A stretch of DNA of 64,000 nucleotides, taken from assembly GCF_055900595.2 (NCBI RefSeq), contig NZ_CM148325.1, one strand, 5' to 3'. How positions within the stretch are numbered: the stretch's first letter is position 1; every line of letters begins with the position of its first letter. The notes beneath the pieces were generated by a model. It did not search any database. It was not told where the DNA came from and was given only the letters and a program-made list of their open reading frames with translations. Positions 6,843 to 40,078 of the stretch are shown here, one piece after another. The position numbers and the translations under genes are program-made.

Positions 6843-6914
6843 CTTACCATCTCGTTTTACATGCTTAACGTTAACACCGACTTAAGCGTGACATTCGCTA
6901 TTATCGGCGCAATT

Positions 6915-6932
6915 TGTTTTATATGCTAAACA
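6915..6932 (-). promoter_or_regulatory. NadR-box-like palindrome upstream of nadA
   Basis: TGTTTTatatgcTAAACA inverted repeat (TGTTTA/TAAACA half-sites) about 75 bp upstream of the nadA start. Confidence 0.35.
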
Positions 6933-7084
6933 AGATAGTCGAATGGTGAGGAAAAGTCACTCGAATTACGTATGAGATGACGAATGCCACACTTTGCGTC
7001 TTATTCCTCCGACGTAGAGTCGTTTACGCAGCAAGCGCGGAGTATGTCATCAGGGTCAGAATTGAAATTGAGAGATGCCTGAAT

Positions 7085-7440
7085 AGCAAAAAAGCGCCTT
7101 TAGGGCGCTTTTTTTACATTGGTGGGTCGTGCAGGATGACTCGCTTCGCTCGCCCTTCGGGCCGTCGCCGCGAGCGGCTCCGTTGTTTCGCTACGCTCAA
7201 CTCGAACCTGCTGCAGGTTCGAATCTTTGAATATCCCAGATAGCAAAAAAGCGCCTTTAGGGCGCTTTTTTACATTGGTGGGTCGTGCAGGATGACTCGC
7301 TTCGCTCGCCCTTCGGGCCGTCGCCGCGAGCGGCTCCGTTGTTTCGCTACGCTCAACTCGAACCTGCTGCAGGTTCGAATCTTTGAATATCCCAGATAGC
7401 AAAAAAGCGCCTTTAGGGCGCTTTTTTTACATTGGTGGGT
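7085..7440. repeat. tandem repeat, about 157 bp unit, a little over two copies, downstream of lysQ
   Basis: The unit starts (agcaaaaaagcgcc...) at 7085, 7242 and 7398. Each unit holds an A-run/GC-hairpin/T-run (agcgcc-ttta-gggcgct) and a 17 nt copy of the tRNA-Lys 3' end (tggtgggtcgtgcagga). Confidence 0.7.
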
Positions 7441-7508
7441 CGTGCAGGATTCGAACCTGCGACCAATTGATTAAAAGTCAACTGCTCTACCAACTGAGCT
7501 AACGACCC
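7433..7508 (-). tRNA. lysQ: tRNA-Lys (UUU)
   Basis: Reverse complement matches the E. coli tRNA-Lys sequence through the CCA end; seventh gene of the operon. Confidence 0.95.
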
Positions 7509-7640
7509 CTTGCGGGATTATGCTGCTTTAATCATTCAGGATGGTGGGTCGTGCAGGATGACTCGACTTCGTCTCGCCCTTCGGGCCGTTGCTGACGCAA
7601 CGTTATCCTTCACGTTCTCTACCAGTAACCACCTTTAAAT

Positions 7641-7716
7641 TGGTGGGTCGTGCAGGATTCGAACCTGCGACCAATTGATTAAAAGTCAACTGCTCTACCA
7701 ACTGAGCTAACGACCC
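7641..7716 (-). tRNA. lysZ: tRNA-Lys (UUU)
   Basis: Identical tRNA-Lys sequence on the minus strand. Confidence 0.95.
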
Positions 7717-7862
7717 ATACGGGTGTTACCTGAATGATTTCTACTCGGAACCAATCTTTAAGATTAGTGGGTCGTGCAGGATGACTCGCTTCGCTCGCCC
7801 TACGGGCCGTTGCTGACGCATCGTTATCCTTCACGCTTAACATCTGAGTTTGATGTTAAAAC

Positions 7863-7938
7863 TGGTGGGTCGTGCAGGATTCGAACCTGCGACCAATTGA
7901 TTAAAAGTCAACTGCTCTACCAACTGAGCTAACGACCC
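7863..7938 (-). tRNA. lysY: tRNA-Lys (UUU)
   Basis: Identical tRNA-Lys sequence on the minus strand. Confidence 0.95.
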
Positions 7939-7941
7939 GAG

Positions 7942-8017
7942 TGGTGGGTGATGACGGGATCGAACCGCCGACCCCCTCCTTGTAAGGGAGGTGCTCTCCC
8001 AGCTGAGCTAATCACCC
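7942..8017 (-). tRNA. valZ: tRNA-Val (UAC)
   Basis: Reverse complement matches E. coli tRNA-Val(UAC) with CCA end. Confidence 0.95.
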
Positions 8018-8068
8018 GATACTGCGCTGGATACTACAAACTACTTCCACCGAACCCACCGTAATTAG

Positions 8069-8144
8069 TGGTGGGTCGTGCAGGATTCGAACCTGCGACC
8101 AATTGATTAAAAGTCAACTGCTCTACCAACTGAGCTAACGACCC
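8069..8144 (-). tRNA. lysW: tRNA-Lys (UUU)
   Basis: Identical tRNA-Lys sequence on the minus strand. Confidence 0.95.
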
Positions 8145-8146
8145 GG

Positions 8147-8222
8147 TGGTGGGTGATGACGGGATCGAACCGCCGACCCCCTCCTTGTAAGGGAGGTGCT
8201 CTCCCAGCTGAGCTAATCACCC
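8147..8222 (-). tRNA. valT: tRNA-Val (UAC)
   Basis: Identical tRNA-Val sequence on the minus strand. Confidence 0.95.
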
Positions 8223-8357
8223 GATACTGCGCTGGATACTACAACTAACTAGGTTAGTGGTGGGTCGTGCAGGATGACTCGACTTCGTCTCGCCCTTCGG
8301 GCCGTTGCTGACGCAACGTTATCCTTCACGTTTTACTACCGCTTCCACCTTAGCGAT

Positions 8358-8433
8358 TGGTGGGTCGTGCAGGATTCGAACCTGCGACCAATTGATTAAA
8401 AGTCAACTGCTCTACCAACTGAGCTAACGACCC
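8358..8433 (-). tRNA. lysT: tRNA-Lys (UUU)
   Basis: Identical tRNA-Lys sequence; first gene of the operon (transcribed from high to low coordinates). Confidence 0.95.
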
Positions 8434-8597: not shown

Positions 8598-9389
8598 TTA
8601 CATCGCGTTCAGACGTTTTTGTGCCTGTTTAGCGCCATCAGTACCAGGGTATTTACTGATAACCTGCTGGTATACGGCTTTCGCTTTTGCGGTGTCACCT
8701 TTGTCCTGCATGATGACGCCGACTTTAAACATCGCATCTGCAGCCTTCGGTGACTTCGGATAGTTTTTCACTACCGAAGCAAAATAATACGCCGCATCAT
8801 CTTTTTTACCCTTGTTGTAGTTTAACTGACCCAGCCAATAATTGGCGTTTGGCAGGTAAGTTGAATCAGGGTAATTTTTGATGAAATTCTGAAATGCCAC
8901 CATTGCGTCATCCTGGCGGGATTTATCCTGCACCAGCGCAATAGCTGCATTGTAATCCGTGTTTGCATCACCGCTTTTCACCGGCGCGCCAGCATTCGCA
9001 GTACCAGCATCAGCTGTCGGCGTCGTTGATGCCGCCGCACCGCTATGATCGCCGCTGGTTGATTGCGCCGCTGCACCACCGCTGCTGAGGCTATCGATCT
9101 GCAACAGGATCTGCTTTTGCCGCTCCACGACCTGATTCAGTTGATACTGATTTTCCTGAATCTGACCACGCAGGGAATCAATATCGGATTGATTATCAGA
9201 GAGTTGTTGCTGGAGTTGGGTTAAAAGCTGGCTGTGAGCATTAGAAATACGCTCAAGTTGAGTGACGCGGTCTTCGACCGAGCCTGAGCCGACACTACTG
9301 ATTGGTGCCTGAGCAAAAGCGGCCCAGGGGGCCGCTATACCAACCAGTAACGACAGACTCAATAGTTGATGTCTGAAGTTACTGCTCAT
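8598..9389 (-). CDS. cpoB: cell division coordinator CpoB (YbgF), TPR protein
   Basis: 263 aa ORF with signal peptide, coiled-coil Q-rich segment and TPR-like C-terminus; downstream of pal. Confidence 0.9.
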   Translation of the reverse strand: MSSNFRHQLLSLSLLVGIAAPWAAFAQAPISSVGSGSVEDRVTQLERISNAHSQLLTQLQQQLSDNQSDIDSLRGQIQENQYQLNQVVERQKQILLQIDSLSSGGAAAQSTSGDHSGAAASTTPTADAGTANAGAPVKSGDANTDYNAAIALVQDKSRQDDAMVAFQNFIKNYPDSTYLPNANYWLGQLNYNKGKKDDAAYYFASVVKNYPKSPKAADAMFKVGVIMQDKGDTAKAKAVYQQVISKYPGTDGAKQAQKRLNAM

Positions 9390-9398
9390 GCAATTCTC

Positions 9399-9944
<546 letters not shown>

Positions 9945-18332: not shown

Positions 18333-19277
18333 ATGGGTCTTGATAATATAGGTTATGTTGTCAATCGCTTCTCTGGTTGGCCATCAAATGATCCTCTAAA
18401 AACAGATAACGAATCAATGACATCACCCGTGACTGTGCAGGTAATAAAGTTGATTGCCGCCATCCTTGACCCACATCGGATAGTCGTTGGTATCGATACA
18501 CTTTATACAACGCAGCGCAAAACATTTACCTCAGAGGGTCAACAACTCATTGAATCAGCATTGAAAACACTTAATGTGATGAATTTAAATAACCTGGAAA
18601 CAGATCGCGATGAGGAGGGTAACTATCTGGCTTTTGGATATAACGTTGACACTCCTGACAGAATAACCGTTTCTGCTTATAATGAAAAAAAACCTTTCTG
18701 TTATGGCCAATGTCTTTTAATACAGGATGAAGAACCAGATTTATTTAACCTGGTAAAAATTAAAACCTTTGAAGCCAGGCATAATTATGTTTCTAAATTG
18801 ATGAGCGATCCGGAATTTATGTTTAAATTCAGTTATAGCACCCAACAAAATAGATTAGAACCTCATCTTCTGGTTCCCACTTATTTCCCTCTAAAAACAA
18901 ACCAACCGGTTACGCTAGAGGATGTACTGATACTTTATCGTTTCTTTAAAATGAATGGCGATTTTAATATATTAACATCAGATGAATACATGAGTATCAT
19001 GACACCTCTGATGAAGTGTGAGCGTAGTGTCCACGACCATAACAGGTATGTGACGGGCAAAGATGCTCTTCTTCTGGACAATCCTCCGTCTGGTAACCAG
19101 ATATATTTCCATATTTCCCCTGACGAATCAGCAACACTTGTCCTTTATTTTTCAGACAATAACCTTGAATCCTTCGTCTTTGAAAATGATATTCCGAGCC
19201 AGTATCGACATTTCAAAATGTTTACCAATTTAGCACTAGTTATTGATCAGTTAACCGACGCCAATCAAATACTTTAA
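18333..19277 (+). CDS. hypothetical protein (314 aa), AT-rich, no recognisable domain
   Basis: ATG start with GAGG about 10 nt upstream; codon composition visibly more AT-rich than flanking core genes; I recognise no motif. Confidence 0.5.
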   Translation: MGLDNIGYVVNRFSGWPSNDPLKTDNESMTSPVTVQVIKLIAAILDPHRIVVGIDTLYTTQRKTFTSEGQQLIESALKTLNVMNLNNLETDRDEEGNYLAFGYNVDTPDRITVSAYNEKKPFCYGQCLLIQDEEPDLFNLVKIKTFEARHNYVSKLMSDPEFMFKFSYSTQQNRLEPHLLVPTYFPLKTNQPVTLEDVLILYRFFKMNGDFNILTSDEYMSIMTPLMKCERSVHDHNRYVTGKDALLLDNPPSGNQIYFHISPDESATLVLYFSDNNLESFVFENDIPSQYRHFKMFTNLALVIDQLTDANQIL

Positions 19278-19356
19278 TTTTCTATACAGCCCTGTGTAAA
19301 ATATTGCTAATCAGTGCCCGGGGTTGATTTTTATTCCTCACGGTGATATTTAAATC

Positions 19357-19779
19357 ATGACCCCATCTCAGCTCTCTTTTAATACTCTTCCTGTCAATGC
19401 AACATGCACTTCAGAGATAACAGTAAACACACAAAAATTCTCTGACATCCTCTACTCAGTGGGGTATTCCCTAAAGGATCTGGCTTATCTGAGCAGATGT
19501 CTTGCATCATTACACCCGACACTCGCCAAAAACATTTATGAAACGGAAAATCTCAGCGATCAAAAATTACTTTATATAGATTGCCGTAGTACAAATGAAA
19601 TCAAGATAAATATCTTTTTTGGTCAGCAACGAGAAGGATTAATTGAAATTAGTTCTGACACAGTCATTTTTTCGATACTGTCTTCATTGATTGACTCAGC
19701 TATTTCTGAACATCGACATCAAATCACCATTAACGATTCAAATAATTCTGAACTATTTTATGAGGATTATACTGATTAA
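19357..19779 (+). CDS. hypothetical small acidic protein (140 aa)
   Basis: ORF 80 bp downstream of the previous ORF on the same strand; AT-rich; acidic C-terminus; no recognisable motif. Confidence 0.45.
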   Translation: MTPSQLSFNTLPVNATCTSEITVNTQKFSDILYSVGYSLKDLAYLSRCLASLHPTLAKNIYETENLSDQKLLYIDCRSTNEIKINIFFGQQREGLIEISSDTVIFSILSSLIDSAISEHRHQITINDSNNSELFYEDYTD

Positions 19780-20321: not shown

Positions 20322-20771
20322 ATGAAGAAAGCAACACTTGTGATTGGCGTTATTGGCGCGGACTGCCATGCAGTAGGCAATAAAGTTCTGGACCGCGTTT
20401 TTAGCAACCATGACTTCAGAGTCATTAATCTGGGCGTAATGGTCAGCCAGGACGAATATATTGATGCTGCCATTGAAACTGGCGCTGACGCGATTGTCGT
20501 CTCCTCTATCTATGGGCATGGCGATATCGATTGTCTGGGCATGCGCGAACGCTGCATCGAGCGTGGGCTGGGTAACATCCTGCTCTATGTGGGCGGTAAC
20601 CTGGTGGTCGGAAAACATGACTTCGCTGACGTGGAAACCAAGTTCAAAGAGATGGGATTTGATCGCGTCTTTTCCCCAAGTCATGACTTAGAAGATGTTT
20701 GTCAGCTGATGGCCCACGATATCAACCAACGTCATGACGTTGATACTCGCATTCTTGAAGAGGCAATCTGA
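20322..20771 (+). CDS. glmS: glutamate mutase sigma (S) subunit, B12-binding
   Basis: [24 protein letters not shown]... aligns with the clostridial GlmS/MutS B12-binding subunit (DxHxxG-type motif in [10 protein letters not shown]); ORF track begins 21 codons earlier. Confidence 0.85.
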
Positions 20772-22159
20772 TGCAAATCGTCTCTGTCGATATTGGATCG
20801 ACGTGGACCAAAGCAGCCCTCTTCACCCGGGAGGGGGACGCGTTAACGTTGGTTAACCACGTTCTGACCCCAACCACCACCCATCATCTGGCGAAGGGGT
20901 TTTTCTCCAGCCTGGACCAGGTGTTAAACGTAGATGATGCCCTCCCCCTGTTAAACAGTGGTGAGGTTGCATTGAAGTATTCCTCCTCTGCCAAAGGTGG
21001 GCTGGCGGTTGCCGCAATGGGATTAGTGCCTTCTATCACTCTGGAAACCGCGAAAGTAACCGCTCACTCTGCGGGTGCTAAAATTGCGCAATATTACGCC
21101 TACAAGCTGAACCGCCGTGATATCCAGGCACTGGAAGAAACGCAGCCCGATATTCTCTTGTTCACCGGCGGCACCGACGGCGGAGAAGAAAGCTACGGAC
21201 TGAATAACGCCCGTGTGCTGGCAGAATCCAAACTCGACTGCGCCATTATTTATGCCGGAAACCGGGATATTCAGGACAAGGTGCAGGAGATCCTCGGGCA
21301 TAAAGACCTGACCATCGTCGACAACGTTCTGCCCGATCTTGACCATCCGAACCCTTTAGCTGCACGCCAGGCTATCTGCGACATATTCCTTAAACGCATC
21401 GTTAAAGGGAAAGGGCTGGATGTCATTGTTGATAAAACAGGCGAAGAACCAATGCCGACACCATGGACGGTCTTTGAACTGGTTAAGGCAATCAGTAACG
21501 TCGATCACAGCTGGAAAGAGTTCATGCTGATCGACATGGGCGGCGCAACCACCGATGTCTATTCCGCCTGTGCCAACACGCTCTCGCCCGACACTGTTTT
21601 ACATGGCGTACCGGAACCCTTCGTAAAACGGACGGTGGAAGGCGATCTGGGAATGCGCGTCTCGGCAATGGTGGTTGGTGAAAGTGCGAAAGAGTTAGTC
21701 AGTGTGAATTTTGCTCAGCAACCCGCACAGTTGGACGCTTTTTATCATTACCTCCGTCATCTAGTCGCTCATCCCGACTACTTACCCGCGAATGCAGATG
21801 AAAAATATTTCGATACCGTCCTGGCCGGACTGTGTGTGGGTTATGCCACCGAAAGACATGCGGGCACCAAAAAAGAGGTCTGCACCTGCGTCGGCAATGT
21901 CGATTTACAGATGGGACGTGACCTGACAACCGTGCGTAAAGTCGTGGGTTCCGGCGGATGGCTCTCGCGTGCCAGTCAGTTCGATATGCATCGCTGGTTG
22001 AAATACCGCGAGTTAAACGACGACGGTAAACGCATTCTCTTACCGACCGAATTTGAATATTACCGCGATTCCCGGGGGCTATTACCACTGCTGGCAAACG
22101 TCGCCAGAGTCGATCCGCTGGCCGCCGCGCGCACCAGTATTCAATGCTTAACCCTATAA
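20771..22159 (+). CDS. glmL: glutamate mutase-associated protein GlmL/MutL
   Basis: 462 aa ORF between the S and E subunit genes, start overlapping the glmS stop; same position and size as clostridial glmL. Confidence 0.75.
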   Translation: MQIVSVDIGSTWTKAALFTREGDALTLVNHVLTPTTTHHLAKGFFSSLDQVLNVDDALPLLNSGEVALKYSSSAKGGLAVAAMGLVPSITLETAKVTAHSAGAKIAQYYAYKLNRRDIQALEETQPDILLFTGGTDGGEESYGLNNARVLAESKLDCAIIYAGNRDIQDKVQEILGHKDLTIVDNVLPDLDHPNPLAARQAICDIFLKRIVKGKGLDVIVDKTGEEPMPTPWTVFELVKAISNVDHSWKEFMLIDMGGATTDVYSACANTLSPDTVLHGVPEPFVKRTVEGDLGMRVSAMVVGESAKELVSVNFAQQPAQLDAFYHYLRHLVAHPDYLPANADEKYFDTVLAGLCVGYATERHAGTKKEVCTCVGNVDLQMGRDLTTVRKVVGSGGWLSRASQFDMHRWLKYRELNDDGKRILLPTEFEYYRDSRGLLPLLANVARVDPLAAARTSIQCLTL

Positions 22160-22177: not shown

Positions 22178-23623
22178 ATGGAACTTCGAAATAAGAAATT
22201 AACCCATGACGAATTCATGACCGAGCGGCAACAGGTATTGAAAACCTGGGAAACCGGCAAGGATGTTGAAAACTTTGAAGATGGCGTTAAATACCAACAA
22301 ACCATTCCTGAGCATAAACGCTTCTCTCTTGCCCTGCTGAAAGCAGACAAGGAAGGTAAAACCCTTAGCCAACCGCGCGCAGGCGTGGCGCTGATGGACG
22401 AACACATCGAACTACTGAAAACACTACAAGAAGAGTGCGATCTGCTGCCGAGCACTATCGATGCATATACCCGTCTGAATCGGTACGAAGAAGCGGCTGT
22501 AGGGATTAAAAAATCCATCGAAGCCAGAACCTCTAAACTGAACGGTTTACCGGTAGTTAACCACGGCGTCGCAGCTTGCCGTCGCCTCACCGAAACTCTG
22601 CAAAAACCGCTACAGATCCGCCACGGCACGCCAGATGCGCGTCTGCTGGCTGAAATCTCGATGGCCAGCGGCTTTACCAGTTATGAAGGCGGCGGCATTT
22701 CCTACAATATTCCGTATGCCAAGCGCGTAACGCTGGAAAAATCGATCCGCGACTGGCAGTACTGCGATCGTTTAATGGGGATGTACGAAGAACACGGGAT
22801 CCGCATCAACCCCGAACCGTTTGGCCCACTAACGGGTACGCTGATCCCGCCGTTTATCTCGCACTCTATCGCAATAATCGAAGGCTTGCTGGCACTGGAA
22901 CAGGGTGTGAAGTCTATCACCGTTGGTTATGGTCAGGTCGGTAGCCTGACGCAGGATGTTGCGGCGATCCAGTCTCTGCGGGAACTTGCACACGAATACT
23001 TTCAGAGCTATGGCTATACCGACTACGAATTAAGTACCGTGTTTCACCAGTGGATGGGCGGCTTTCCGGAAGACGAATCGAAAGCGTTCGCCATTATCTC
23101 CTGGGGTGCTGCCGTCGCGGGGATGTCTGGTGCTACCAAAGTCATCACCAAAAGTCCGCACGAAGCCTGGGGCATCCCGACTGCTGCTGCCAACATTCAG
23201 GGGCTAAAAGCCTCCCGCCAGATGCTCAACATGGTCAACGAGCAGAAATTCCCGCCGTGCCCGGCGGTTGAACTAGAAATTGAACTGATTAAGAGCGAGG
23301 TTCGCGCGGTACTGAACAAAGTGTTCGAACTGGGTAATGGTGATATTGCGCGCGGTACGGTGCTGGCATTTGAAGCGGGCGTACTGGATGTGCCGTTTGC
23401 GCCAGCCGCCTGCAACGCAGGCAAAATTCTTCCGGTCCGTGACAACACTGGCGCGATTCGCGTACTGGAGGCCGGAGCCGTTCCATTGCCAAAAGATATT
23501 CTCGACCTCCACCACGATTACGTTGCTGAACGCGCGCGCTTTGAAGGACGCCAACCGACATTCCAGATGGTTGTAGATGACATCAATGCTGTATCCCACA
23601 GTAAATTAATAGGAAGACCATAA
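22178..23623 (+). CDS. glmE: glutamate mutase epsilon (E) subunit
   Basis: 481 aa ORF, size and position matching clostridial GlmE; flanked by glmS/glmL and methylaspartase. Confidence 0.85.
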   Translation: MELRNKKLTHDEFMTERQQVLKTWETGKDVENFEDGVKYQQTIPEHKRFSLALLKADKEGKTLSQPRAGVALMDEHIELLKTLQEECDLLPSTIDAYTRLNRYEEAAVGIKKSIEARTSKLNGLPVVNHGVAACRRLTETLQKPLQIRHGTPDARLLAEISMASGFTSYEGGGISYNIPYAKRVTLEKSIRDWQYCDRLMGMYEEHGIRINPEPFGPLTGTLIPPFISHSIAIIEGLLALEQGVKSITVGYGQVGSLTQDVAAIQSLRELAHEYFQSYGYTDYELSTVFHQWMGGFPEDESKAFAIISWGAAVAGMSGATKVITKSPHEAWGIPTAAANIQGLKASRQMLNMVNEQKFPPCPAVELEIELIKSEVRAVLNKVFELGNGDIARGTVLAFEAGVLDVPFAPAACNAGKILPVRDNTGAIRVLEAGAVPLPKDILDLHHDYVAERARFEGRQPTFQMVVDDINAVSHSKLIGRP

Positions 23624-24864
23624 TGAAAATAAAACAGGCCCTTTTTACCGCTGGCTACTCCTCATTCTATTTCGATGATCAGCAGGCGATAAAAAACGGA
23701 GCGGGTCACGACGGTTTTTTTTATACCGGGGAGCCAGTAACACAGGGGTTTAACGCCGTACGTCAGGCCGGGGAGTGCGTTTCGGTTCAGTTGATTCTGG
23801 AAAACGGTGCGGTCGCCGTAGGCGACTGTGCTGCCGTACAGTATTCCGGGGCAGGTGGTCGCGATCCACTGTTCCTCGCAGAGCACTTTATTCCGTTCCT
23901 CAACGACCATATCAAGCCATTACTGGTAGGCCGCGATGTGGATGCTTTCCTGCCGAATGCCCGTTTCTTCGACAAATTGCGTATTGACGGCAACTTGCTA
24001 CATACCGCCGTGCGCTACGGATTATCACAGGCGCTGCTTGATGCTACCGCGCTGGCAACCGGCCGTCTGAAAACTGAAGTGGTCTGTGATGAATGGCAGT
24101 TGCCACGCGTGGCGGAATCCATTCCATTATTTGGTCAGAGCGGCGACGATCGATATATCGCTGTCGATAAGATGATCCTTAAGGGCATCGACGTGCTGCC
24201 CCATGCGCTGATTAATAACGTCGAAGAGAAACTGGGCTTTAAAGGTGAAAAACTGCGCGAATATGTCCGCTGGCTGTCGGATCGCATTCTGAGCAAGCGC
24301 ACCAGCGCACGCTACCACCCTACCCTGCACATCGATGTATACGGCACTATTGGTCTGATCTTCGATATGGATCCGCTTCGCTGTGCGCAATACATCGCCA
24401 GTCTGGAAAAAGAGGCGCAAGGCCTGCCGCTCTACATTGAGGGGCCGGTCGATGCCGGTAACAAGCCCGATCAAATCCGCCTGCTGACCGCGATTACCAA
24501 AGAGCTGACGCGCCTCGGTTCCGGCGTGAAAATCGTGGCCGATGAATGGTGTAACACCTACCAGGATATTGTTGATTTCACTGATGCCGCCAGTTGCCAC
24601 ATGGTGCAAATCAAAACCCCGGATCTGGGCAGTATTCACAACATCGTCGATGCAGTTCTTTATTGCAACAGCCACAGCATGGAAGCGTACCAGGGCGGCA
24701 CCTGCAATGAAACTGATGTCAGTGCCCGCACCTGTGTCCACGTCGCCCTTGCTGCTCGCCCCATGCGTATGCTGGTAAAACCAGGGATGGGCTTTGACGA
24801 AGGCCTCGATATCGTCTTCAACGAAATGAATCGTACTATCGCGCTGTTGCAGGCTAAGGATTAA
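23623..24864 (+). CDS. mal: 3-methylaspartate ammonia-lyase (methylaspartase)
   Basis: 413 aa enolase-superfamily-like ORF; start overlaps the glmE stop (TAATG). Confidence 0.85.
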   Translation: MKIKQALFTAGYSSFYFDDQQAIKNGAGHDGFFYTGEPVTQGFNAVRQAGECVSVQLILENGAVAVGDCAAVQYSGAGGRDPLFLAEHFIPFLNDHIKPLLVGRDVDAFLPNARFFDKLRIDGNLLHTAVRYGLSQALLDATALATGRLKTEVVCDEWQLPRVAESIPLFGQSGDDRYIAVDKMILKGIDVLPHALINNVEEKLGFKGEKLREYVRWLSDRILSKRTSARYHPTLHIDVYGTIGLIFDMDPLRCAQYIASLEKEAQGLPLYIEGPVDAGNKPDQIRLLTAITKELTRLGSGVKIVADEWCNTYQDIVDFTDAASCHMVQIKTPDLGSIHNIVDAVLYCNSHSMEAYQGGTCNETDVSARTCVHVALAARPMRMLVKPGMGFDEGLDIVFNEMNRTIALLQAKD

Positions 24865-24867
24865 CAA

Positions 24868-26238
24868 ATGGCTCGTTCTTTTAAAGTCTTATCGCCAACG
24901 GCAATCCTCGGGTATGGATTCCCGGAAGAGAGCTTCCGCAAAGCGATGGCAGAATCGCCCGATCTGATCGCCGTTGATGCAGGCTCTTCCGATCCTGGCC
25001 CCCACTACCTCGGGGCGGGCAAACCGTTTACCGATCGCGCAGGGGTCAAGCGCGATCTACGCTATATGATCACCGCAGGCGTGCAAAATAATATACCGGT
25101 AGTGATCGGAACGGCCGGCGGTTCTGGTGCCGCTCCACACCTGGAGTGGTGCCGAGAAATAATTCATGAGATTGCCCGGGAAGAGCACCTCGCGTTCTCG
25201 ATGGCGCTGATCCCGGCAGACGTTGACAAAGCCATCGTCCACCAGGCGCTGGATAACGGCAAAATCACGGCGCTGGATTTTGTCCCGCCGTTAACCCACG
25301 ACGCGATTGACGAAAGTACGTATATCGTCGCGCAAATGGGCATCGAACCCTTCCAGCAGGCGCTGAAAGAAGGCGCGCAAGTGGTGCTGGGCGGGCGCGC
25401 TTACGACCCGGCCTGCTTTGCTGCGCTACCGATCATGCAAGGCTTTGATGAAGGTCTGGCGCTGCATTGTGGGAAAATCCTTGAATGCGCGGCAATCGCC
25501 GCAACGCCCGGCTCAGGCTCTGACTGTGCGATGGGCATCATTGATGACAACGGCTTTACGCTGAAGACATTTAATCCGAAGCGTAAATTTACCGAAACGT
25601 CAGCGGCTGCACACACACTGTATGAGAAATCCGATCCCTACTTTCTGCCAGGACCTGGCGGCGTGCTAAACCTGAAAGGTTGCACATTTAAAGCGATCAA
25701 TGATGGCGAAGTTTACGTCAGCGGTTCTAAGCATGAAGAAACGCCCTATGCCCTGAAACTGGAAGGTGCGCGGCGGGTGGGTTTCCGCTGTTTGACCATC
25801 GCCGGAACGCGCGACCCGATCATGATCGCCGGGATCGATAACATCATCGATGAAGTCAAAACCAGCGTTTCGCGTAATCTGTCCTTAGACGATGACAGCA
25901 TTCGCATCAATTTCCACCTGTACGGCAAAAACGGGGTGATGGGCGACCATGAACCGATGCAAACTGCCGGGCATGAGCTGGGGATTGTCCTTGATGTAGT
26001 TGCACCGACCCAGGATATTGCCAATAGCGTTTGCTCGCTGGTGCGCTCTACCATGCTGCACTACGGCTATGAAAACCGCATCGCTACCGCAGGCAACCTG
26101 GCGTTCCCGTTCTCCCCTTCTGATATCCAGGGCGGGCCGGTATACGAATTTTCCATATATCACCTGATTGAAGCCAACGACGCTCTGCGTTTTGATTTCC
26201 ATATTGAACAGGTGACGCCAGAAGGAGTTCAGGCATGA
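24868..26238 (+). CDS. uncharacterised protein, possibly DUF1446 (AtuA-like) family
   Basis: 456 aa ORF 3 nt after mal; the family assignment is from memory of the DUF1446/DUF4387 gene pairing and is unverified. Confidence 0.55.
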   Translation: MARSFKVLSPTAILGYGFPEESFRKAMAESPDLIAVDAGSSDPGPHYLGAGKPFTDRAGVKRDLRYMITAGVQNNIPVVIGTAGGSGAAPHLEWCREIIHEIAREEHLAFSMALIPADVDKAIVHQALDNGKITALDFVPPLTHDAIDESTYIVAQMGIEPFQQALKEGAQVVLGGRAYDPACFAALPIMQGFDEGLALHCGKILECAAIAATPGSGSDCAMGIIDDNGFTLKTFNPKRKFTETSAAAHTLYEKSDPYFLPGPGGVLNLKGCTFKAINDGEVYVSGSKHEETPYALKLEGARRVGFRCLTIAGTRDPIMIAGIDNIIDEVKTSVSRNLSLDDDSIRINFHLYGKNGVMGDHEPMQTAGHELGIVLDVVAPTQDIANSVCSLVRSTMLHYGYENRIATAGNLAFPFSPSDIQGGPVYEFSIYHLIEANDALRFDFHIEQVTPEGVQA

Positions 26239-26552
26239 AACAGTCAATTGTCTCACTGGCGCAAGTCATTCGTTCGAAAAATGCCGGACCTTACGAACTG
26301 GTTTTAGATATTTTATTTAAAACCAAAGAAAACTATGAGCGAGTAAAATCATCAGGGCAATTAACCCCAGAACTGATTGCGCGCTTATATCATGTTGAAC
26401 CTGACTTTATTCATCGTATTGTCTGGTTTGATCCTTCTAACGCAGTAAAAATTGTCATGCCACGAGATATTATCTCCGGGAATGTAGGTGACAATGATGT
26501 CTATGGCGCACAGCAACATGCACCTTTATTAAATATGAGTTTCGATTTGTAA
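26235..26552 (+). CDS. uncharacterised small protein, possibly DUF4387 family
   Basis: 105 aa ORF whose ATG overlaps the upstream stop (ATGA); contains an RSKNAGP-like segment I associate with DUF4387. Confidence 0.5.
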   Translation: MKQSIVSLAQVIRSKNAGPYELVLDILFKTKENYERVKSSGQLTPELIARLYHVEPDFIHRIVWFDPSNAVKIVMPRDIISGNVGDNDVYGAQQHAPLLNMSFDL

Positions 26553-26712: not shown

Positions 26713-27993
26713 ATGAAGAAAATAAGTTTAACCACGATGATTCTTTTGGCGCTGGTACTTGGAATGATTATCGGCGTAGTGCTCAATAACACTGCTTCAC
26801 CGGAAACAGCAAAACTCTATGCGCAAGAAATATCGATATTCACGACGATTTTCTTACGACTGATAAAAATGATTATCGCTCCGTTAGTGGTCTCTACCCT
26901 GGTGGTAGGTATTGCTAAAATGGGCGATGCCAAAGCCCTTGGTCGTATTTTTTCTAAAACACTCTTTTTATTTATTTGCGCCTCATTGCTGTCAATTGCC
27001 TTAGGCTTGATAACGGTAAATTTCTTCATGCCAGGCACAGGAATTAATTTTGTTGCACACGGTGCCGAAACCACCGGAGTGGTCGCGTCAGAACCCTTTA
27101 CACTAAAAGTATTTATTTCGCATGCTTTCCCCACCAGCATTGTCGATGCCATGGCGCACAATGAAATTTTGCAAATCGTGGTGTTCTCAATTTTCCTCGG
27201 CTGTAGCCTGACGGCGATTGGTGAGAAAGGCAGCGCCATCGTTCACGCCTTAGATTCGCTGGCACATGCCATGTTAAAGCTCACTGGCTACGTCATGCTC
27301 TTCGCTCCCCTGACCGTATTCGCCGCTATTTCAGCATTGATTGCTGAACGAGGACTGGCAGTTATGGTGAGCGCCGGGATCTTTATGGGTGAATTTTATT
27401 TCACCATGTTATTACTTTGGGTGCTGCTTATCGGTCTGGCCATCGTTTATGTCGGCCCCTGCATCAGACGCCTGACCCGCGCCCTTTCTGAACCCGCCCT
27501 GCTGGCATTTACCACATCCAGTTCTGAAGCTGCTTTTCCGGGAACGCTTGAAAAACTGGAGCAATTTGGCGTTTCCCCCAAAATTGCCAGCTTTGTCTTA
27601 CCCATTGGCTACTCATTTAATCTCGTTGGATCAATGGCCTACTGCTCCTTCGCCACAGTTTTCATCGCCCAGGCCTGCAATATCCATTTATCCATCGGTG
27701 AGCAAATCACCATGCTGTTGATCCTGATGTTGACCTCGAAAGGAATGGCTGGCGTACCACGCGCCTCAATGGTGGTTATCGCCGCCACGCTCAACCAGTT
27801 CAATATTCCGGAAGCGGGGCTGATCTTGCTGATGGGCGTTGATCCGTTCCTTGATATGGGGCGTTCCGCGACAAACGTCATGAGCAACGCAATGGGCGCT
27901 GCGATGGTGAGTCGGTGGGAAGGCGAACATTTCGGCGAGGGTTGTCGGGGTAAAGCATTAAAACCCAATGAATCGAACGTTGCTCTGCCCTGA
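26713..27993 (+). CDS. dicarboxylate/amino acid:cation symporter (GltP-like)
   Basis: Start placed at MKKISLT with GGAGG 5 nt upstream; polytopic; conserved DAACS segments (IKMIIAPLVVSTLVVGIA, SSSEAAFP, PIGYSFNLVGS) resemble GltP. Confidence 0.8.
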   Translation: MKKISLTTMILLALVLGMIIGVVLNNTASPETAKLYAQEISIFTTIFLRLIKMIIAPLVVSTLVVGIAKMGDAKALGRIFSKTLFLFICASLLSIALGLITVNFFMPGTGINFVAHGAETTGVVASEPFTLKVFISHAFPTSIVDAMAHNEILQIVVFSIFLGCSLTAIGEKGSAIVHALDSLAHAMLKLTGYVMLFAPLTVFAAISALIAERGLAVMVSAGIFMGEFYFTMLLLWVLLIGLAIVYVGPCIRRLTRALSEPALLAFTTSSSEAAFPGTLEKLEQFGVSPKIASFVLPIGYSFNLVGSMAYCSFATVFIAQACNIHLSIGEQITMLLILMLTSKGMAGVPRASMVVIAATLNQFNIPEAGLILLMGVDPFLDMGRSATNVMSNAMGAAMVSRWEGEHFGEGCRGKALKPNESNVALP

Positions 27994-28100: not shown

Positions 28101-29753
28101 ATGTCCAAACCATTTATCTGGCAAGAACCGTTTCTACAAAATAAAGACGGTACAGAATATACATTAATTAGCGATCAACATATTACAGTAACGGAATTAG
28201 ACGGCGAAGAAGTAATAAAAATCGCTCCTGAAGCATTAACGCTGCTTGCCCGGCAGGCATTTTATGAAGCCTCTTTTTTCTTACGTTCCGCTCATTTGCA
28301 ACAGGTCGCCAGCATTCTTAACGATCCGCAGGCCAGCAGTAATGATAAATACGTTGCGTTGCAGTTATTACGTAATGCTGAAGTCTCAGCAAAAGGGGTA
28401 TTACCCAACTGTCAGGATACCGGCACCGCAACTATTGTTGCCAGTAAAGGGCAACAGATATGGACGGGAGGTAACGACGCTGAAGCCTTAAGCAAAGGCA
28501 TTTACAGTACTTTCCAGGAAAATAATCTGCGCTTTTCACAAAATGCGCCGCTGGATATGTATACCGAAGTCAATACGCAAACCAATCTTCCGGCGCAGAT
28601 TGATATCAGCGCTGTCGCTGGTAATGAGTACCATTTTCTCTGTGTTAATAAAGGGGGCGGCTCCGCCAATAAAGCTGCACTTTATCAGGAAACCAAATCC
28701 TTATTGCAACCAGAAAAACTGACCGCATTTTTAATCGACAAAATGAAATCGTTGGGCACGGCCGCCTGCCCGCCCTACCACATCGCCTTTGTCGTCGGAG
28801 GGCTTTCAGCCGATCAAACCTTAAAAGTTGCCAAGCTGGCCTCTACGAAATATTACGACAATTTGCCCACCAGCGGAAACGAGCAGGGACAAGCATTCCG
28901 TGATATTGAGCTGGAAAAAGCGTTGCTCGAAGCCAGTCAGCAATTTGGTATTGGTGCGCAATTTGGGGGTAAATATTTCGCTCATGATATTCGCGTCATT
29001 CGTCTGCCGCGTCACGGTGGCTCCTGCCCGATAGCTATGGCGCTCTCCTGTTCTGCCGATCGCAATATCAAAGCCAAAATTAACAAGCACGGTATCTGGC
29101 TGGAAAAACTCGAACACAATCCGGGGCAATATATTCCAGCCTCATTGCGGGAAGAAAATCACTCGCTACATGTACACCTGGATCTAAACCGTCCGTTGCG
29201 TGACGTGATGCAGGATCTCGCCAGATTACCGGTAGGTACCCGCGTGTCGTTAAGTGGTCCCATCGTAGTGGCGCGCGATATCGCCCACGCAAAAATAAAA
29301 GCGCGGCTGGATAGCGGCGAATCGATGCCGGATTACCTGAAGCATCATATTGTCTATTACGCTGGCCCGGCGAAAACACCGGAGAACATGGCCTGCGGTT
29401 CACTGGGTCCAACCACGGGCGGTCGAATGGACGGTTATGTCGAAACCTTCCAGGCGGCTGGCGGCAGTCTGGTAATGTTATCGAAAGGTAACCGCAGCCA
29501 GCAGGTCACCGATGCCTGTCACAAACATGGCGGCTTCAATCTGGGAAGTATTGGCGGTGCAGCTGCGTTACTGGCGCAAGAATATGTCAAAAGTCTGCGT
29601 TGCCTGGAATACCCGGAGCTGGGTATGGAGGCGGTGTGGATGATGGAAGTGGAAAATCTGCCCGCATTCATCCTGGTTGATGATAAAGGCAATAATTTCT
29701 TTAGCCAGTTTGAGCAGCAACACCGCTGCGCCAGTTGCCCTGCGGGACATTAA
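28101..29753 (+). CDS. fumD: class I fumarate hydratase paralog, probable mesaconase
   Basis: 550 aa ORF alignable along its length to remembered E. coli FumA ([34 protein letters not shown]); the fumD name follows a published O157:H7 mesaconase description, recalled from memory. Confidence 0.8.
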
Positions 29754-29762
29754 GGAAAATGA

Positions 29763-30365
29763 ATGGAAGCGCGAATTTCAACTGAACGGCATGTGCAGCG
29801 CCAGCAGAAATTGAAGGAACAGGTCGATACGCGCGTCGCGGCGGCGATAGAGAAAAAAGGGATCTTGATTGTTTTCACCGGCAACGGCAAAGGGAAATCC
29901 ACTGCCGCGTTTGGTACTGTAACGCGCGCGGTGGGCCATGGCAAAACGGTGGGGGTTGCGCAGTACATCAAGGGGCAATGGGACAACGGCGAATACAATC
30001 TTCTCCAGCCGCTGGGAGTGGAGTTTCATATTATGGGAACCGGTTTTACCTGGGAGACACAGAACCGGCAAGCGGATATCGATGCGGCGAAAGAGGTCTG
30101 GTCGGAAAGCAAACGGATGCTGGCTGACAAGCGTTACGACTTAGTGGTGCTTGATGAGCTCACCTATATGCTGGCTTACCATTATCTGGATACAGAAGAA
30201 GTGATCACTTCTCTGCAAAACCGTCCGGCACAACAAAGTGTCATTGTCACCGGACGCGGTTGCCACAGTCAGATATTAAAAATGGCGGATACGGTAAGTG
30301 AAATCCGCCCCGTCAAACATGCTTTTGATAACGGCATTCAGGCCCAGCCGGGGATCGACTGGTAA
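29763..30365 (+). CDS. cob(I)yrinic acid a,c-diamide / cobalamin adenosyltransferase (BtuR/CobA-like)
   Basis: 200 aa ORF with GILIVFTGNGKGKSTAAFG P-loop and overall similarity to remembered E. coli BtuR; a paralog located in the B12-dependent operon. Confidence 0.85.
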   Translation: MEARISTERHVQRQQKLKEQVDTRVAAAIEKKGILIVFTGNGKGKSTAAFGTVTRAVGHGKTVGVAQYIKGQWDNGEYNLLQPLGVEFHIMGTGFTWETQNRQADIDAAKEVWSESKRMLADKRYDLVVLDELTYMLAYHYLDTEEVITSLQNRPAQQSVIVTGRGCHSQILKMADTVSEIRPVKHAFDNGIQAQPGIDW

Positions 30366-30368
30366 TAA

Positions 30369-30396
30369 CTGCGCCTGGCATCCCGCCAGGCGCAGG
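30369..30396. terminator. bidirectional hairpin between the BtuR-like gene and the convergent LysR gene
   Basis: ctgcgcctggc-atccc-gccaggcgcag perfect inverted repeat followed by gtttt; occupies the 33 bp gap between the two stop codons. Confidence 0.55.
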
Positions 30397-30398
30397 TT

Positions 30399-31304
30399 TT
30401 ACATCTCCTGCGGTACGACCGATTTCGCCAGCAACCATTCACGAAATTGCTGCAAGTGCGGAGAGTCAGACTTCTCTTCCTGCCACGTCATAATAAAACG
30501 ATTACCGGTACGAATAGGCACATCACAGGGAATCACCATATCGCCACTATCCAAATCATGTTGAATAGCGAACCGTGGTAACAGCGCCACGCCGAGATTA
30601 GAGCGCACGGCGGCAATCAGCATTGAAAGCAAATCGAAACGTGGTCCGTTATTGACCAGCGGACTGCTAACGCCAGATAAAGCAAACCACTCTTCCCAGC
30701 CAGTAATACGGGTGCTTTGATGCAGAAGTGGTAACTCAGTAAGCAGTTCTGCCACTGACAGTTTTTGATCGGACATTGCAAGCAAACTGCCGCTGCATAC
30801 CGGCAAAATCTCCTCTTCAAAGAGATATTCTACTTCCGCCCAGGGCGCGCAAAAATTTTCGCGCATAATGACAGCATCGTACTCCCGATTAAGAAAATCG
30901 CCGTTATTAGCTAAAGAATGAATATTAACAATAATATCGGGATGTAACTTTGTGAATTCATGTAAATTTGGGATTAACCAGTGGGTACTAAAAGTAGGAT
31001 TAACGGCAAGTTCAATAACCTGAACCGTAGGCTGCCATGTCATAATCGTATTGGTATCGCGCTCCAGCTTATTTAATGTTTCTTTTACTATCCCCAGGTA
31101 ATACTTCCCTGCATCATTAAGAAAAATGCGTTTTTTAGAGTGTGAAAATAACGGAGTATGTAAAAATTCCTCCAGCGCACTTACTTGTCTGAATACAGCA
31201 CTTTGGGTTAACGCTAACTCCTCTGCCGCTCTGGTATAACTTTCATGTCGTGCGACGACCTCAAAAGTCACCAGCAGCTCCGTTTTAGGTATTTTTCCTC
31301 GCAT
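30399..31304 (-). CDS. LysR-family transcriptional regulator
   Basis: N-terminal HTH (FEVVARHESYTRAAEELALTQSAVFRQVSALEE) and LysR substrate-binding body; start placed at MRGKIPK (ORF track starts 10 codons earlier). Confidence 0.8.
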   Translation of the reverse strand: MRGKIPKTELLVTFEVVARHESYTRAAEELALTQSAVFRQVSALEEFLHTPLFSHSKKRIFLNDAGKYYLGIVKETLNKLERDTNTIMTWQPTVQVIELAVNPTFSTHWLIPNLHEFTKLHPDIIVNIHSLANNGDFLNREYDAVIMRENFCAPWAEVEYLFEEEILPVCSGSLLAMSDQKLSVAELLTELPLLHQSTRITGWEEWFALSGVSSPLVNNGPRFDLLSMLIAAVRSNLGVALLPRFAIQHDLDSGDMVIPCDVPIRTGNRFIMTWQEEKSDSPHLQQFREWLLAKSVVPQEM

Positions 31305-31893: not shown

Positions 31894-33291
31894 ATGCATC
31901 ATCTTTCAAGGCTTGATAAAGCCTTTCTGCGCAAAGGGATCCAACTTTCCCGCGCCAACAATATTGTTTCATTATGTCGTCCATCAGGAGCCAGTGCCCG
32001 CGTACTGCTGCCGGACGAACTGCCGCTGGAAGAAAAAGCAGTGACACAACTGCTTGATTTTGCAGATGTGAAGCTACCAGACCACCCAGGTTATGTGCGC
32101 CAGACGTGCGCGACGCCAGATTTTCATCCCGGCAATGGCGTCCCCGTTGGCGCGGTGGTGGCCTCAACGCCGGATTTAGTCATTCCCGCCGCCATCGGCA
32201 CCGATATTTCTTGTGGCATGCGGCTGCTGACGACCGGATTAACACTTGAGCAAGCCGAAGCGCATAAAGACGTCATCGCTCAGCGGTTAACGCAAGTGCT
32301 ACTGCAAAATGAGCGCGATGTTCCGTTATCCGCACAGGCGTTCACCGCGCTTTTTGATGGCGGACCGGCAGATTGCATGTCGGCCTTGCCATCAGCAGGT
32401 CTCTGGACACGTACAAATATCCCCCGGATGACGCAAGAGATTGACCGCTGCATTGGGCTTAAAGAGCATAACAGTCATTCGCGTTATGCCCCACCCGCCC
32501 TGCTGGCAACGGACCGCGCATTACTCCGCGATCCTTGTCTTGGTACGCCGGGTTCAGGTAATCATTTTATTGAACTTCAGGTCGTTGATAACGTGGTTGA
32601 TCGCCATGTGGCCTGGCAACAAGGGCTGAAAACAGGCGATATTGTGGTGATGATCCACAGTGGATCACGAGATGTTGGCTTTTACGTCGGAAGACGCTGG
32701 ATGGATCGCGCCCGTGCTGAATGGCCCACCGGACATAAACATCCACAAAGCGGGTTATATGGTCTGGCAGGCGGACTGGCGGAGGAATATCTACAAGCGA
32801 TAGGAATGGCGGCGCGTTACGCGTGGTTAAATCGCGTGACAATTGCCGAAATGGTGCGCGTATGTCTTGCCAATCTCTTTCATCAGGACAATTCGCATCT
32901 GGTGGTGGATGTGCCACATAACATCATCCTTCGCGAGCATGAAATGAATATTCATCGCAAAGGCGCAACACCGGCACGAGTGGGCAATCTGGCGTTAATC
33001 CCCGGTTCAATGGGCGATTATTCGTGGCTTGCGGTTGGTTGCGGCAACCCGGAGTGGCTGTGGTCATGCAGTCACGGAGCAGGACGCAGCCAGCGTCGGC
33101 AGGCCATGCGCTCACGCGCGACTGAAGAGTCAACGCTGCCGTGGCAATGCGTCACATTGCGCGAAGAACGACGTCTTGAAGAAGCGCCAGCGGCTTATAA
33201 AGATATTGGTCCGGTTATCGAAGCTCAACAAGAAGCCGGATTAATTCAGCCAGCGGTCAGATTTCGACCGTGGTTAACGTTTAAAGCATAA
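31894..33291 (+). CDS. RtcB-family RNA ligase paralog
   Basis: 465 aa ORF with RtcB hallmarks (GTDISCGMRLL, GSGNHFIELQ, HSGSRDVG, CSHGAGRS); N-terminus longer than remembered E. coli RtcB, so the start is uncertain. Confidence 0.75.
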   Translation: MHHLSRLDKAFLRKGIQLSRANNIVSLCRPSGASARVLLPDELPLEEKAVTQLLDFADVKLPDHPGYVRQTCATPDFHPGNGVPVGAVVASTPDLVIPAAIGTDISCGMRLLTTGLTLEQAEAHKDVIAQRLTQVLLQNERDVPLSAQAFTALFDGGPADCMSALPSAGLWTRTNIPRMTQEIDRCIGLKEHNSHSRYAPPALLATDRALLRDPCLGTPGSGNHFIELQVVDNVVDRHVAWQQGLKTGDIVVMIHSGSRDVGFYVGRRWMDRARAEWPTGHKHPQSGLYGLAGGLAEEYLQAIGMAARYAWLNRVTIAEMVRVCLANLFHQDNSHLVVDVPHNIILREHEMNIHRKGATPARVGNLALIPGSMGDYSWLAVGCGNPEWLWSCSHGAGRSQRRQAMRSRATEESTLPWQCVTLREERRLEEAPAAYKDIGPVIEAQQEAGLIQPAVRFRPWLTFKA

Positions 33292-35507: not shown

Positions 35508-35676
35508 CCGTAGGCCTGATAAGACGCGCAAGCGTCGCATCAGGCATCGCTTGTCGGATGCGGCGCGAGCGCCTTATCCGACCTACATTGATGGTCCCCG
35601 TAGGCCTGATAAGACGCGTCAGCGTCGCATCAGGCTTCAATTGCCGGAGAAAGCGATAATGCCTCATCCGGTCTAC
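35508..35676. repeat. REP/BIME cluster in the sucB-sucC intergenic region
   Basis: Four imperfect palindromes of the gcctgataagacgcg...cgcatcaggc / gccggatgcggcg type. Confidence 0.6.
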
Positions 35677-39893: not shown

Positions 39894-40078
39894 CCTGCAT
39901 TTCTTTTGTAGGCCGGATAACGCATTCACGCCGCATCCGGCGCTGTTTGCCTGATGCGACGCTTGCGCGTCTTATCAGGCCTACGATTCCTGCATTTCTT
40001 TTGTAGGCCGGATAACGCATTCACGCCGCATCCGGCACTGTTTGCCTGATGCGACGCTTGCGCGTCTTATCAGGCCTG
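39894..40078. repeat. two tandem copies of a ~95 bp REP-containing unit (sucA-sdhB intergenic)
   Basis: tcctgcatttcttttgtaggccggataacgcattcacgccgcatccggc...gcctgatgcgacgcttgcgcgtcttatcaggcct occurs twice head-to-tail with single-base differences. Confidence 0.6.

Follow-up and report, generated by a model that had tools for sequence, protein, structure and literature searches.

The question raised by this locus is why an Escherichia coli island should carry its own class I fumarase gene and its own corrinoid adenosyltransferase gene when E. coli backbone genomes already encode FumA, FumB and BtuR. A preliminary description of the window (the whole 64,000-nucleotide stretch of contig NZ_CM148325.1, assembly GCF_055900595.2, that was analysed) had proposed that the fumarase is specialised for mesaconate rather than fumarate, and that the adenosyltransferase couples the supply of adenosylcobalamin (AdoCbl) to glutamate mutase. 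ORF calling showed that positions 28101–30365 hold exactly two open reading frames, both on the (+) strand and encoding 550 and 200 amino acids, whose starts and stops agree with the RefSeq annotation of E. coli E400634. This strain was isolated in Kenya from human stool, and its chromosome matches the 2265-bp region at 100%. We confirmed the first as fumD, encoding a class I fumarate hydratase, and the second as cobO, encoding a CobA/BtuR-type corrinoid adenosyltransferase; both are already correctly annotated in RefSeq. The fumD product matches the N- and C-terminal fumarase domains (PF05681 at 1.7e-74 and PF05683 at 9.2e-78), scoring above the NF011921/PRK15392 equivalog cutoff and below the cutoffs of the FumA model (923.7, cutoff 1105) and the FumB-type model (919.3, cutoff 1094). 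The cobO product matches the CobA_CobO_BtuR family and also exceeds the cutoff of NF004637 (295 bits, cutoff 185).

FumD is 68% identical to K-12 FumA in a one-gap alignment of 545 residues (67% to FumB), and CobO aligns with K-12 BtuR over 196 residues at 67% identity. Together with the domain matches, these alignments bear out the preliminary description in that the island has FumA-like and BtuR-like paralogs of its own, the former alignable to FumA along its full length. The description was equally right about the backbone: among 5426 complete E. coli genomes, 5422 carry btuR and 5425 carry fumA, and the median genome has fumA at two places, which correspond to fumA and fumB. The fumD-cobO pair was found in 1121 of the same genomes (~21%, about one fifth), with at least 80% query coverage in every carrier. 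Because btuR and fumA are near-universal and the pair is confined to these 1121 genomes, fumD and cobO are additional copies, not replacements. The near-universal presence of btuR across the 5426 genomes also argues against cobO being the sole adenosyltransferase of the strain.

The pair closes a run of nine genes that lie on one strand in the order glmS-glmL-glmE-mal-atuA-DUF4387-gltP-fumD-cobO and face a convergent LysR-family gene (Table 1). The AtuA-family gene is kept with glm-mal in every enterobacterial locus examined and in one Bacteroidales MAG, the LysR gene accompanies fumD in nearly all loci examined, and the symporter scores below both the GltP and the DctA equivalog cutoffs. A ribosome-binding site (AAGGTGA) lies 10 nt upstream of fumD; cobO starts 9 nt past the fumD stop codon, with which its own AAGGA overlaps. 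The spacing of the genes suggests that transcription may run continuously from glmS to cobO, and the sole strong terminator-like hairpin, which lies 3′ of cobO, is likely a bidirectional terminator marking the end of this putative operon. Internal promoters could be present in the 160-nt gap before gltP and the 107-nt gap before fumD; a sigma-70 promoter scan gave fewer matches than in shuffled controls and does not bear on them. An Rfam scan of the whole window at gathering thresholds found no cobalamin riboswitch and detected no RNA elements of other families within the island. The cluster is positioned between cydA and sucD, and K-12 has sdhX-mngR-mngA-mngB at the same site (of the 5426 complete E. 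coli genomes, 3884 have mngA). This suggests that the site carries alternative, strain-variable cargo.

Table 1. Features of the fumD-cobO cluster, with positions counted from the first letter of the window
Feature	Position	Strand	Evidence
glmS, methylaspartate (glutamate) mutase B12-binding subunit S	20322..20771	+	NF002612 251 bits (cutoff 110); PF02310; start per RefSeq annotation of identical strain
glmL, mutase accessory/reactivating protein	20771..22159	+	NF040745 507 bits (cutoff 475); PF13941
glmE, methylaspartate mutase subunit E	22178..23623	+	TIGR01503 859 bits (cutoff 390)
mal, methylaspartate ammonia-lyase	23623..24864	+	TIGR01502 544 bits (cutoff 286)
AtuA-family (DUF1446) protein	24868..26238	+	PF07287 7e-20
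DUF4387 protein	26235..26552	+	PF14330 2.6e-39; synteny; 4-nt overlap with atuA stop
GltP/DctA-like dicarboxylate/amino acid:cation symporter	26713..27993	+	PF00375 2e-102; start per RefSeq annotation
fumD, class I [4Fe-4S] mesaconase/fumarase	28101..29753	+	NF011921 1271.7 bits (cutoff 1060); PF05681, PF05683
cobO, CobA/BtuR-type adenosyltransferase	29763..30365	+	PF02572 5.3e-64; TIGR00708 246 bits (cutoff 168)
GC-rich hairpin, 11-bp stem, 9 G-C	30369..30395	.	Top terminator-like match; between convergent cobO and LysR genes
LysR-family regulator, convergent with operon	30399..31304	-	PF00126, PF03466; RefSeq-annotated coordinates

With all genes intact and dN/dS low, pseudogene formation or decay is ruled out. 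In a comparison set that leaves out fumD versus L010 as an alignment artefact (dN 1.995) and in which several intergeneric dS values are saturated, dN/dS across the cluster was 0.00–0.15 between E. coli lineages and 0.02–0.08 between genera, with values of 0.13 (versus O157:H7) and 0.03 (versus Citrobacter sedlakii) for fumD, of 0.02 (versus O157:H7), 0.06 (versus another Escherichia species) and 0.08 (versus C. sedlakii) for cobO, and of 0.00–0.15 for all other cluster genes. These low ratios argue that the cluster genes are maintained by selection despite their reported silence in the laboratory.

We consider it highly probable that this strain-variable cluster of nine genes, with its convergent LysR gene, supplies the enzymes for the three initial steps by which glutamate is broken down through the methylaspartate route, and that within it FumD acts as the mesaconase and CobO as a probable supplier of AdoCbl. 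Glutamate, presumably imported by the GltP-like symporter, would be converted to 3-methylaspartate by the AdoCbl-dependent glutamate mutase GlmSE, with GlmL as its reactivase, and Mal would then deaminate 3-methylaspartate to mesaconate. FumD, an oxygen-sensitive [4Fe-4S] class I hydratase whose step has been demonstrated with the 98%-identical O157:H7 orthologue, would hydrate mesaconate to (S)-citramalate. In the role that we infer for it, CobO would adenosylate cob(I)alamin with ATP; since cobO is closely coupled to fumD, cells that produce the mutase probably produce CobO too, which would raise AdoCbl from salvaged corrinoids above the level provided by the housekeeping BtuR.

CobO itself is predicted to be a catalytically intact adenosyltransferase. 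It is identical to O157:H7 ECs_0756 at 199 of 200 residues (99%) and can be aligned with Salmonella CobA (PDB 1G5R) over its full length. Across 46 sequences there is no variation in the Phe/Trp pair F95/W97 or, its Ser/Thr position apart, in the P-loop GNGKGK(S/T)T, which reads GNGKGKST in CobO. F95/W97 corresponds to F91/W93 in Salmonella CobA, the pair that displaces the lower ligand. CobO does not behave as an orthologue of BtuR, as it lies at a different locus (btuR adjoins yciK) and the two share 67% identity. The propanediol operon and the ethanolamine operon each encode a pathway-dedicated adenosyltransferase, PduO and EutT respectively, and by analogy with these a dedicated supply of AdoCbl to glutamate mutase is plausible for CobO; such a role would fit its conserved adjacency to fumD, its intact motifs and its low dN/dS. 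Three adenosyltransferase types are cited in PMC7617358; a search of CobO for a PduO/EutT domain matched only PF02572 and PF12557. A literature search on ECs0756 and on follow-up of the cluster turned up no experimental report, only the 2015 paper considered below and reviews citing it.

To follow the pair beyond E. coli, we compared the island proteins by tblastn with the 79 loci that a scan of GTDB species genomes returned. In 40 of these loci glmE lies close to the fumarase gene, and all but one of the 40 have enough downstream sequence to assess. In 34 of the 39 assessable loci cobO lay directly 3′ of the fumarase gene, and glmE-linked fumD-cobO was found in Escherichia, Citrobacter, Klebsiella, Enterobacter, Lelliottia, Buttiauxella, Salmonella, Yokenella and Yersinia. 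The arrangement of FumD with glmS, glmL, glmE and mal upstream on the same strand was seen in more than 30 species. In the same tblastn locus matrix, no locus assigned to the FumA/FumB side had an adjacent cobO, FumD-related groups excepted. The remaining five assessable loci have no cobO (Escherichia whittamii, Escherichia sp. E1V33, Pseudescherichia vulneris, UBA7338 and one Bacteroidales MAG), and in the four enterobacterial ones fumD is followed directly by the LysR gene. That four enterobacterial glm-fumD clusters do without cobO indicates that the gene is not indispensable.

These absences bear on the main rival explanation for CobO, namely that cobO is a historical passenger from a cob-operon neighbourhood that was carried in with fumD and brings the mutase no specific benefit beyond that of BtuR. 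The fumarase-cobO pair occurs with no glm or mal gene within 10 kb at seven loci (five in Morganella, one in Budvicia aquatica and one in Enterobacteriaceae bacterium B14), and at the Budvicia locus and one Morganella locus (L041 and L045) the LysR/fumD-like/cobO block directly abuts cbiQ-cbiO-cbiP-cobU-cobS-cobC-cobT, where the cobalamin biosynthesis operon ends. In Yersinia, the block is separated from glmS of a divergent glm cluster by genes for a tetrapyrrole methylase and a GHMP kinase, the latter read as PduX-like. Both arrangements favour a passenger origin, as do the four enterobacterial clusters, which count as independent absences of cobO, and the presence of btuR in nearly every E. 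coli genome. However, every one of the 1121 E. coli carriers retains an intact cobO at no less than 80% coverage, and a useless gene should decay, whereas cobO shows strong purifying selection (dN/dS of 0.02–0.08) and invariant catalytic motifs. Adjacency to a cob operon is, moreover, itself B12-related, and an origin as a passenger need not conflict with a present function. On this balance we judge it unlikely that CobO is a passenger with nothing to offer the mutase, and we retain local supply of AdoCbl as its plausible role.

The fumarase of the pair has been characterised biochemically. Kronen and Berg (PLoS One 2015, PMC4682846) described the cluster, named FumD (ECs0757) and purified the O157:H7 protein; the gene pair, the cluster, its distribution in pathogenic enterobacteria and the kinetics of FumD have been known since then. 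They reported the cluster in 26.5% of E. coli strains and 90.6% of O157:H7 strains and named Morganella morganii as a carrier; their Figure 5 shows GltP, FumD, CobA and the LysR regulator, the adenosyltransferase (CobA) being mentioned in the figure legend only (PMC4682846). FumD of the window is identical to ECs_0757 at 538 of 550 residues (98%) and has the same neighbours, and none of the 12 differences falls at a catalytic or lineage-specific position.

We mapped the active site of FumD from an alignment with Leishmania major FH (5L2R), in which Cys133, Cys252 and Cys346 are the cluster ligands, Asp135/His334 the acid pair and Thr467/Arg421/Arg471 the base triad, with Gln134, Arg173, Lys213–Ser217, Thr468 and Lys491 as further mapped residues. 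FumD conserves the cluster cysteines C104, C223 and C317 as well as Q105, D106, R144, H305, R392, T438, T439, R442 and K462, and all 15 mapped cluster-binding or catalytic positions are invariant among 80 class I sequences from related loci plus FumA and FumB. Twelve other positions distinguish the island FumD clade (37 sequences) from sequences on the FumA/FumB side (30), and four of these twelve lie at most two residues in sequence from a catalytic residue: A183N adjoins the lysine of KGGGS, A307G comes after His305, V315L before Cys317, and A440G between Thr439 and Arg442. From their placement, we propose these four substitutions as candidates that may set the preference for mesaconate. FumA and FumB are 90% identical to one another and each ~68% identical to FumD, which suggests that FumD split off before the duplication that gave rise to FumA and FumB.

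The published kinetics allow the proposed specialisation to be judged. FumD of O157:H7 has a kcat/Km of 2×10^6 M-1 s-1 with mesaconate and 7.5×10^5 M-1 s-1 with fumarate (Km for fumarate 0.9 mM), compared with 2.5×10^5 and 6.6×10^6 M-1 s-1 for FumA (0.094 mM) and 5.8×10^5 and 3.12×10^6 M-1 s-1 for FumB (0.21 mM) (PMC4682846). Mesaconate is thus hydrated by FumA and FumB with 4% and 19%, respectively, of their own efficiency with fumarate, and the Vmax of FumD with fumarate, 671 U/mg, is as high as that of FumA or FumB (PMC4682846). The comparison with FumA that the preliminary description had called for therefore already exists for the O157:H7 orthologue, and it upholds the claim of substrate specialisation in direction more than in degree: kcat/Km favours mesaconate 2- to 3-fold (about 2.7-fold), a real but modest preference, but the O157:H7 allele is a very active fumarase too and is better described as a promiscuous mesaconase/fumarase than as an enzyme for mesaconate rather than fumarate. 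The scenario in which the chromosomal enzymes make the paralogs redundant is also partly true, as FumB already hydrates mesaconate with ~30% of the efficiency of FumD (about 3.4-fold lower, from the published kcat/Km values).

FumD could also be read as a redundant extra class I fumarase, the third, that interconverts fumarate and malate (in the anaerobic reductive branch, for instance); its proximity to the glm genes would then be incidental. Its Vmax with fumarate (PMC4682846) and the sdh-suc TCA genes that adjoin the cluster are what such a reading can draw on, but its Km for fumarate (0.9 mM, against 0.09 mM for FumA and 0.21 mM for FumB) and its kcat/Km both point to mesaconate (PMC4682846). 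Furthermore, FumD stays linked to glm-mal in many genera and at many chromosomal sites, whereas it is only in Escherichia that the sdh-suc genes are its neighbours, and the lineage-specific substitutions cluster beside catalytic residues. We regard a third fumarase as a quite improbable account with little support, and mesaconate hydration as the preferred role of FumD.

In O157:H7, neither expression, methylaspartate ammonia-lyase activity nor glutamate-dependent growth was seen under any condition tried, growth having been tested with or without three forms of cobalamin, and no citramalate-cleaving activity was found (PMC4682846). A further reading takes the whole cluster, fumD and cobO included, to be without function in E. 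coli, a silent, horizontally acquired remnant that has no citramalate-cleaving step. It has just as little support and is the least probable of the readings, since all nine genes are intact, dN/dS stays at 0.00–0.15 between E. coli lineages and 0.02–0.08 between genera, and the cluster is present in about a fifth of the complete genomes.

Several observations nevertheless count against the mechanism set out above: the inactivity of the cluster in O157:H7 (PMC4682846), the activity of FumB with mesaconate, the four clusters that do without cobO, the near-universal btuR and the lack of a riboswitch in the window.

The cross-species comparison also speaks to the history of the pair. A glutaminase gene lies between gltP and fumD in Klebsiella, Citrobacter and others, and E. 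coli is without it, in agreement with Figure 5 of PMC4682846. In a neighbour-joining tree without bootstrap support, the Yersinia, Morganella and Budvicia fumarases group with FumD. They have N183, G307, L/I315, mostly G440, and M515 in common with it, at an overall identity of 70–72% to both FumD and FumA that does not separate the two. We also consider a more speculative, and to our minds doubtful, extension of the preferred reading, in which fumD-cobO, together with the LysR gene, would be an old, self-contained Enterobacterales module that predates the island and was later joined to glm-mal, in which N183, G307, L315 and G440 would set the mesaconate preference, and in which CobO would be a non-redundant partner of glutamate mutase, for instance through direct hand-off of AdoCbl as in PduO/MMAB-type enzymes.

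As a discovery the gene pair matters little, because it was published in 2015 and is annotated in RefSeq. What is added here is that cobO is dispensable in some lineages, that the fumD-cobO module has a wider history, and that a four-residue signature lies beside the active site of FumD. This signature provides a short list for engineering the mesaconate/fumarate preference of class I hydratases, which is relevant to C5-dicarboxylate production. The interest of cobO lies in whether an island-borne adenosyltransferase benefits glutamate mutase where corrinoids are obtained by salvage alone.

Set against known systems, FumD is like K-12 FumA and FumB in its two-domain fold family, in a length within 2 residues of theirs and in identical Fe-S ligands and catalytic residues, and unlike them in its reversed substrate preference (by the published kinetics) and in A183N, A307G, V315L and A440G. 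Clostridial MesAB is likewise a class I fumarase homologue that is encoded with glmSE and mal and catalyses the same step, but it consists of split alpha/beta subunits, has citramalate lyase genes alongside and, by the phylogeny in that paper, is of independent origin; unlike the island, the MesAB clusters described there are without an adenosyltransferase (PMC4682846). The locus as a whole is closest to that of O157:H7 ECs0757, with an orthologue of equal length, the same gene order and the same chromosomal site, and differs from it in having one more gene, of the RtcB family, between sucD and the LysR gene. CobO shares with BtuR of E. coli and CobA of Salmonella (PDB 1G5R, 4HUT) the PF02572 and TIGR00708 matches, the P-loop and the equivalents of F91/W93, and differs from BtuR in four extra N-terminal residues and in a P-loop Ser where BtuR has Thr. 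In concept it resembles PduO and EutT, each an extra adenosyltransferase inside the operon of an AdoCbl-dependent enzyme in a host that also has CobA/BtuR; CobO, however, belongs to another protein family, the CobA type, and the likeness is functional only.

In loci from a scan of GTDB species genomes, we found that a block comprising a LysR gene, a fumD-like gene and cobO lies directly against the terminal part of the cob operon, cbiQ-cbiO-cbiP-cobU-cobS-cobC-cobT, in both Budvicia aquatica (L041, 1-9525) and Morganella morganii (L045, 13283-21306), with no glm or mal gene within 10 kb of the block at either locus. The corresponding genes in Yersinia aldovae (L042) are separated from a divergent glm cluster by two genes at 6683-8365, one for a GHMP kinase, which we read as PduX-like, and one for a tetrapyrrole methylase of the uroporphyrinogen-III type.

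The tblastn matrix of island proteins against the scanned loci revealed reduced clusters at L008, L009, L037 and L038. The clusters of Escherichia whittamii and Escherichia sp. E1V33 are missing both gltP and cobO, and those of Pseudescherichia vulneris and UBA7338 are missing cobO alone. A 7.3-kb contig from a 'Collinsella sp.' MAG (L007, JAIJJM010000101.1) carries mal-atuA-DUF4387-gltP-fumD-cobO, with proteins 98-100% identical to those of the E. coli window, and is almost certainly E. coli contamination in an actinobacterial bin. Our search of E. coli genomes returned 1122 fumD-cobO matches, including a single one from a plasmid-classed record; two copies occurred in one genome.

The AtuA-family and DUF4387 genes, which overlap one another, are kept together with glm-mal in all enterobacterial loci examined, in Yersinia and in Yokenella, and also in L078, from a Bacteroidales MAG. 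The dN/dS of the pair is 0.00–0.08. This pair is a candidate for the step missing after mesaconate or citramalate.

Where the island borders cydA, searches of Pfam and NCBIfam with the two hypothetical proteins encoded there gave no match; both genes are also present in O157:H7. On the sucD side, the segment bearing the RtcB-family RNA ligase gene is carried by 144 of the 5426 complete E. coli genomes, and O157:H7 loci are without this gene. It is the sole gene between the island LysR gene and sucD/sdhX. The minus-strand hairpin and T-run just past it look like the sucD/SdhX terminator.

Features of the window, in order of position
Feature	Position	Strand	Remarks
tRNA array (Lys/Val)	7120-8433		RtT elements interspersed
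CpoB/ybgF thermometer	9360-9498
Two hypothetical genes (314 and 140 aa)	18333-19779		GC-poor (36%)
AtuA-family and DUF4387 genes	24868-26552		4-nt overlap
RtcB-family RNA ligase gene (465 aa)	ORF 31894-33291, in segment 31335-33388	+	PF01139
Hairpin, then T-run	33313-33296	-
naRNA4 (REP-like)	35513-35583		Rfam match; sucC-sucB intergenic region
naRNA4 (REP-like)	39911-40076		Rfam match; sucA-sdhB intergenic region

The tRNA array and the CpoB/ybgF thermometer are ordinary backbone, upstream of tol-pal. The sucC-sucB gap, in which one of the naRNA4 elements lies, spans about 275 bp in both the window and K-12, compared with 94 bp in O157:H7.
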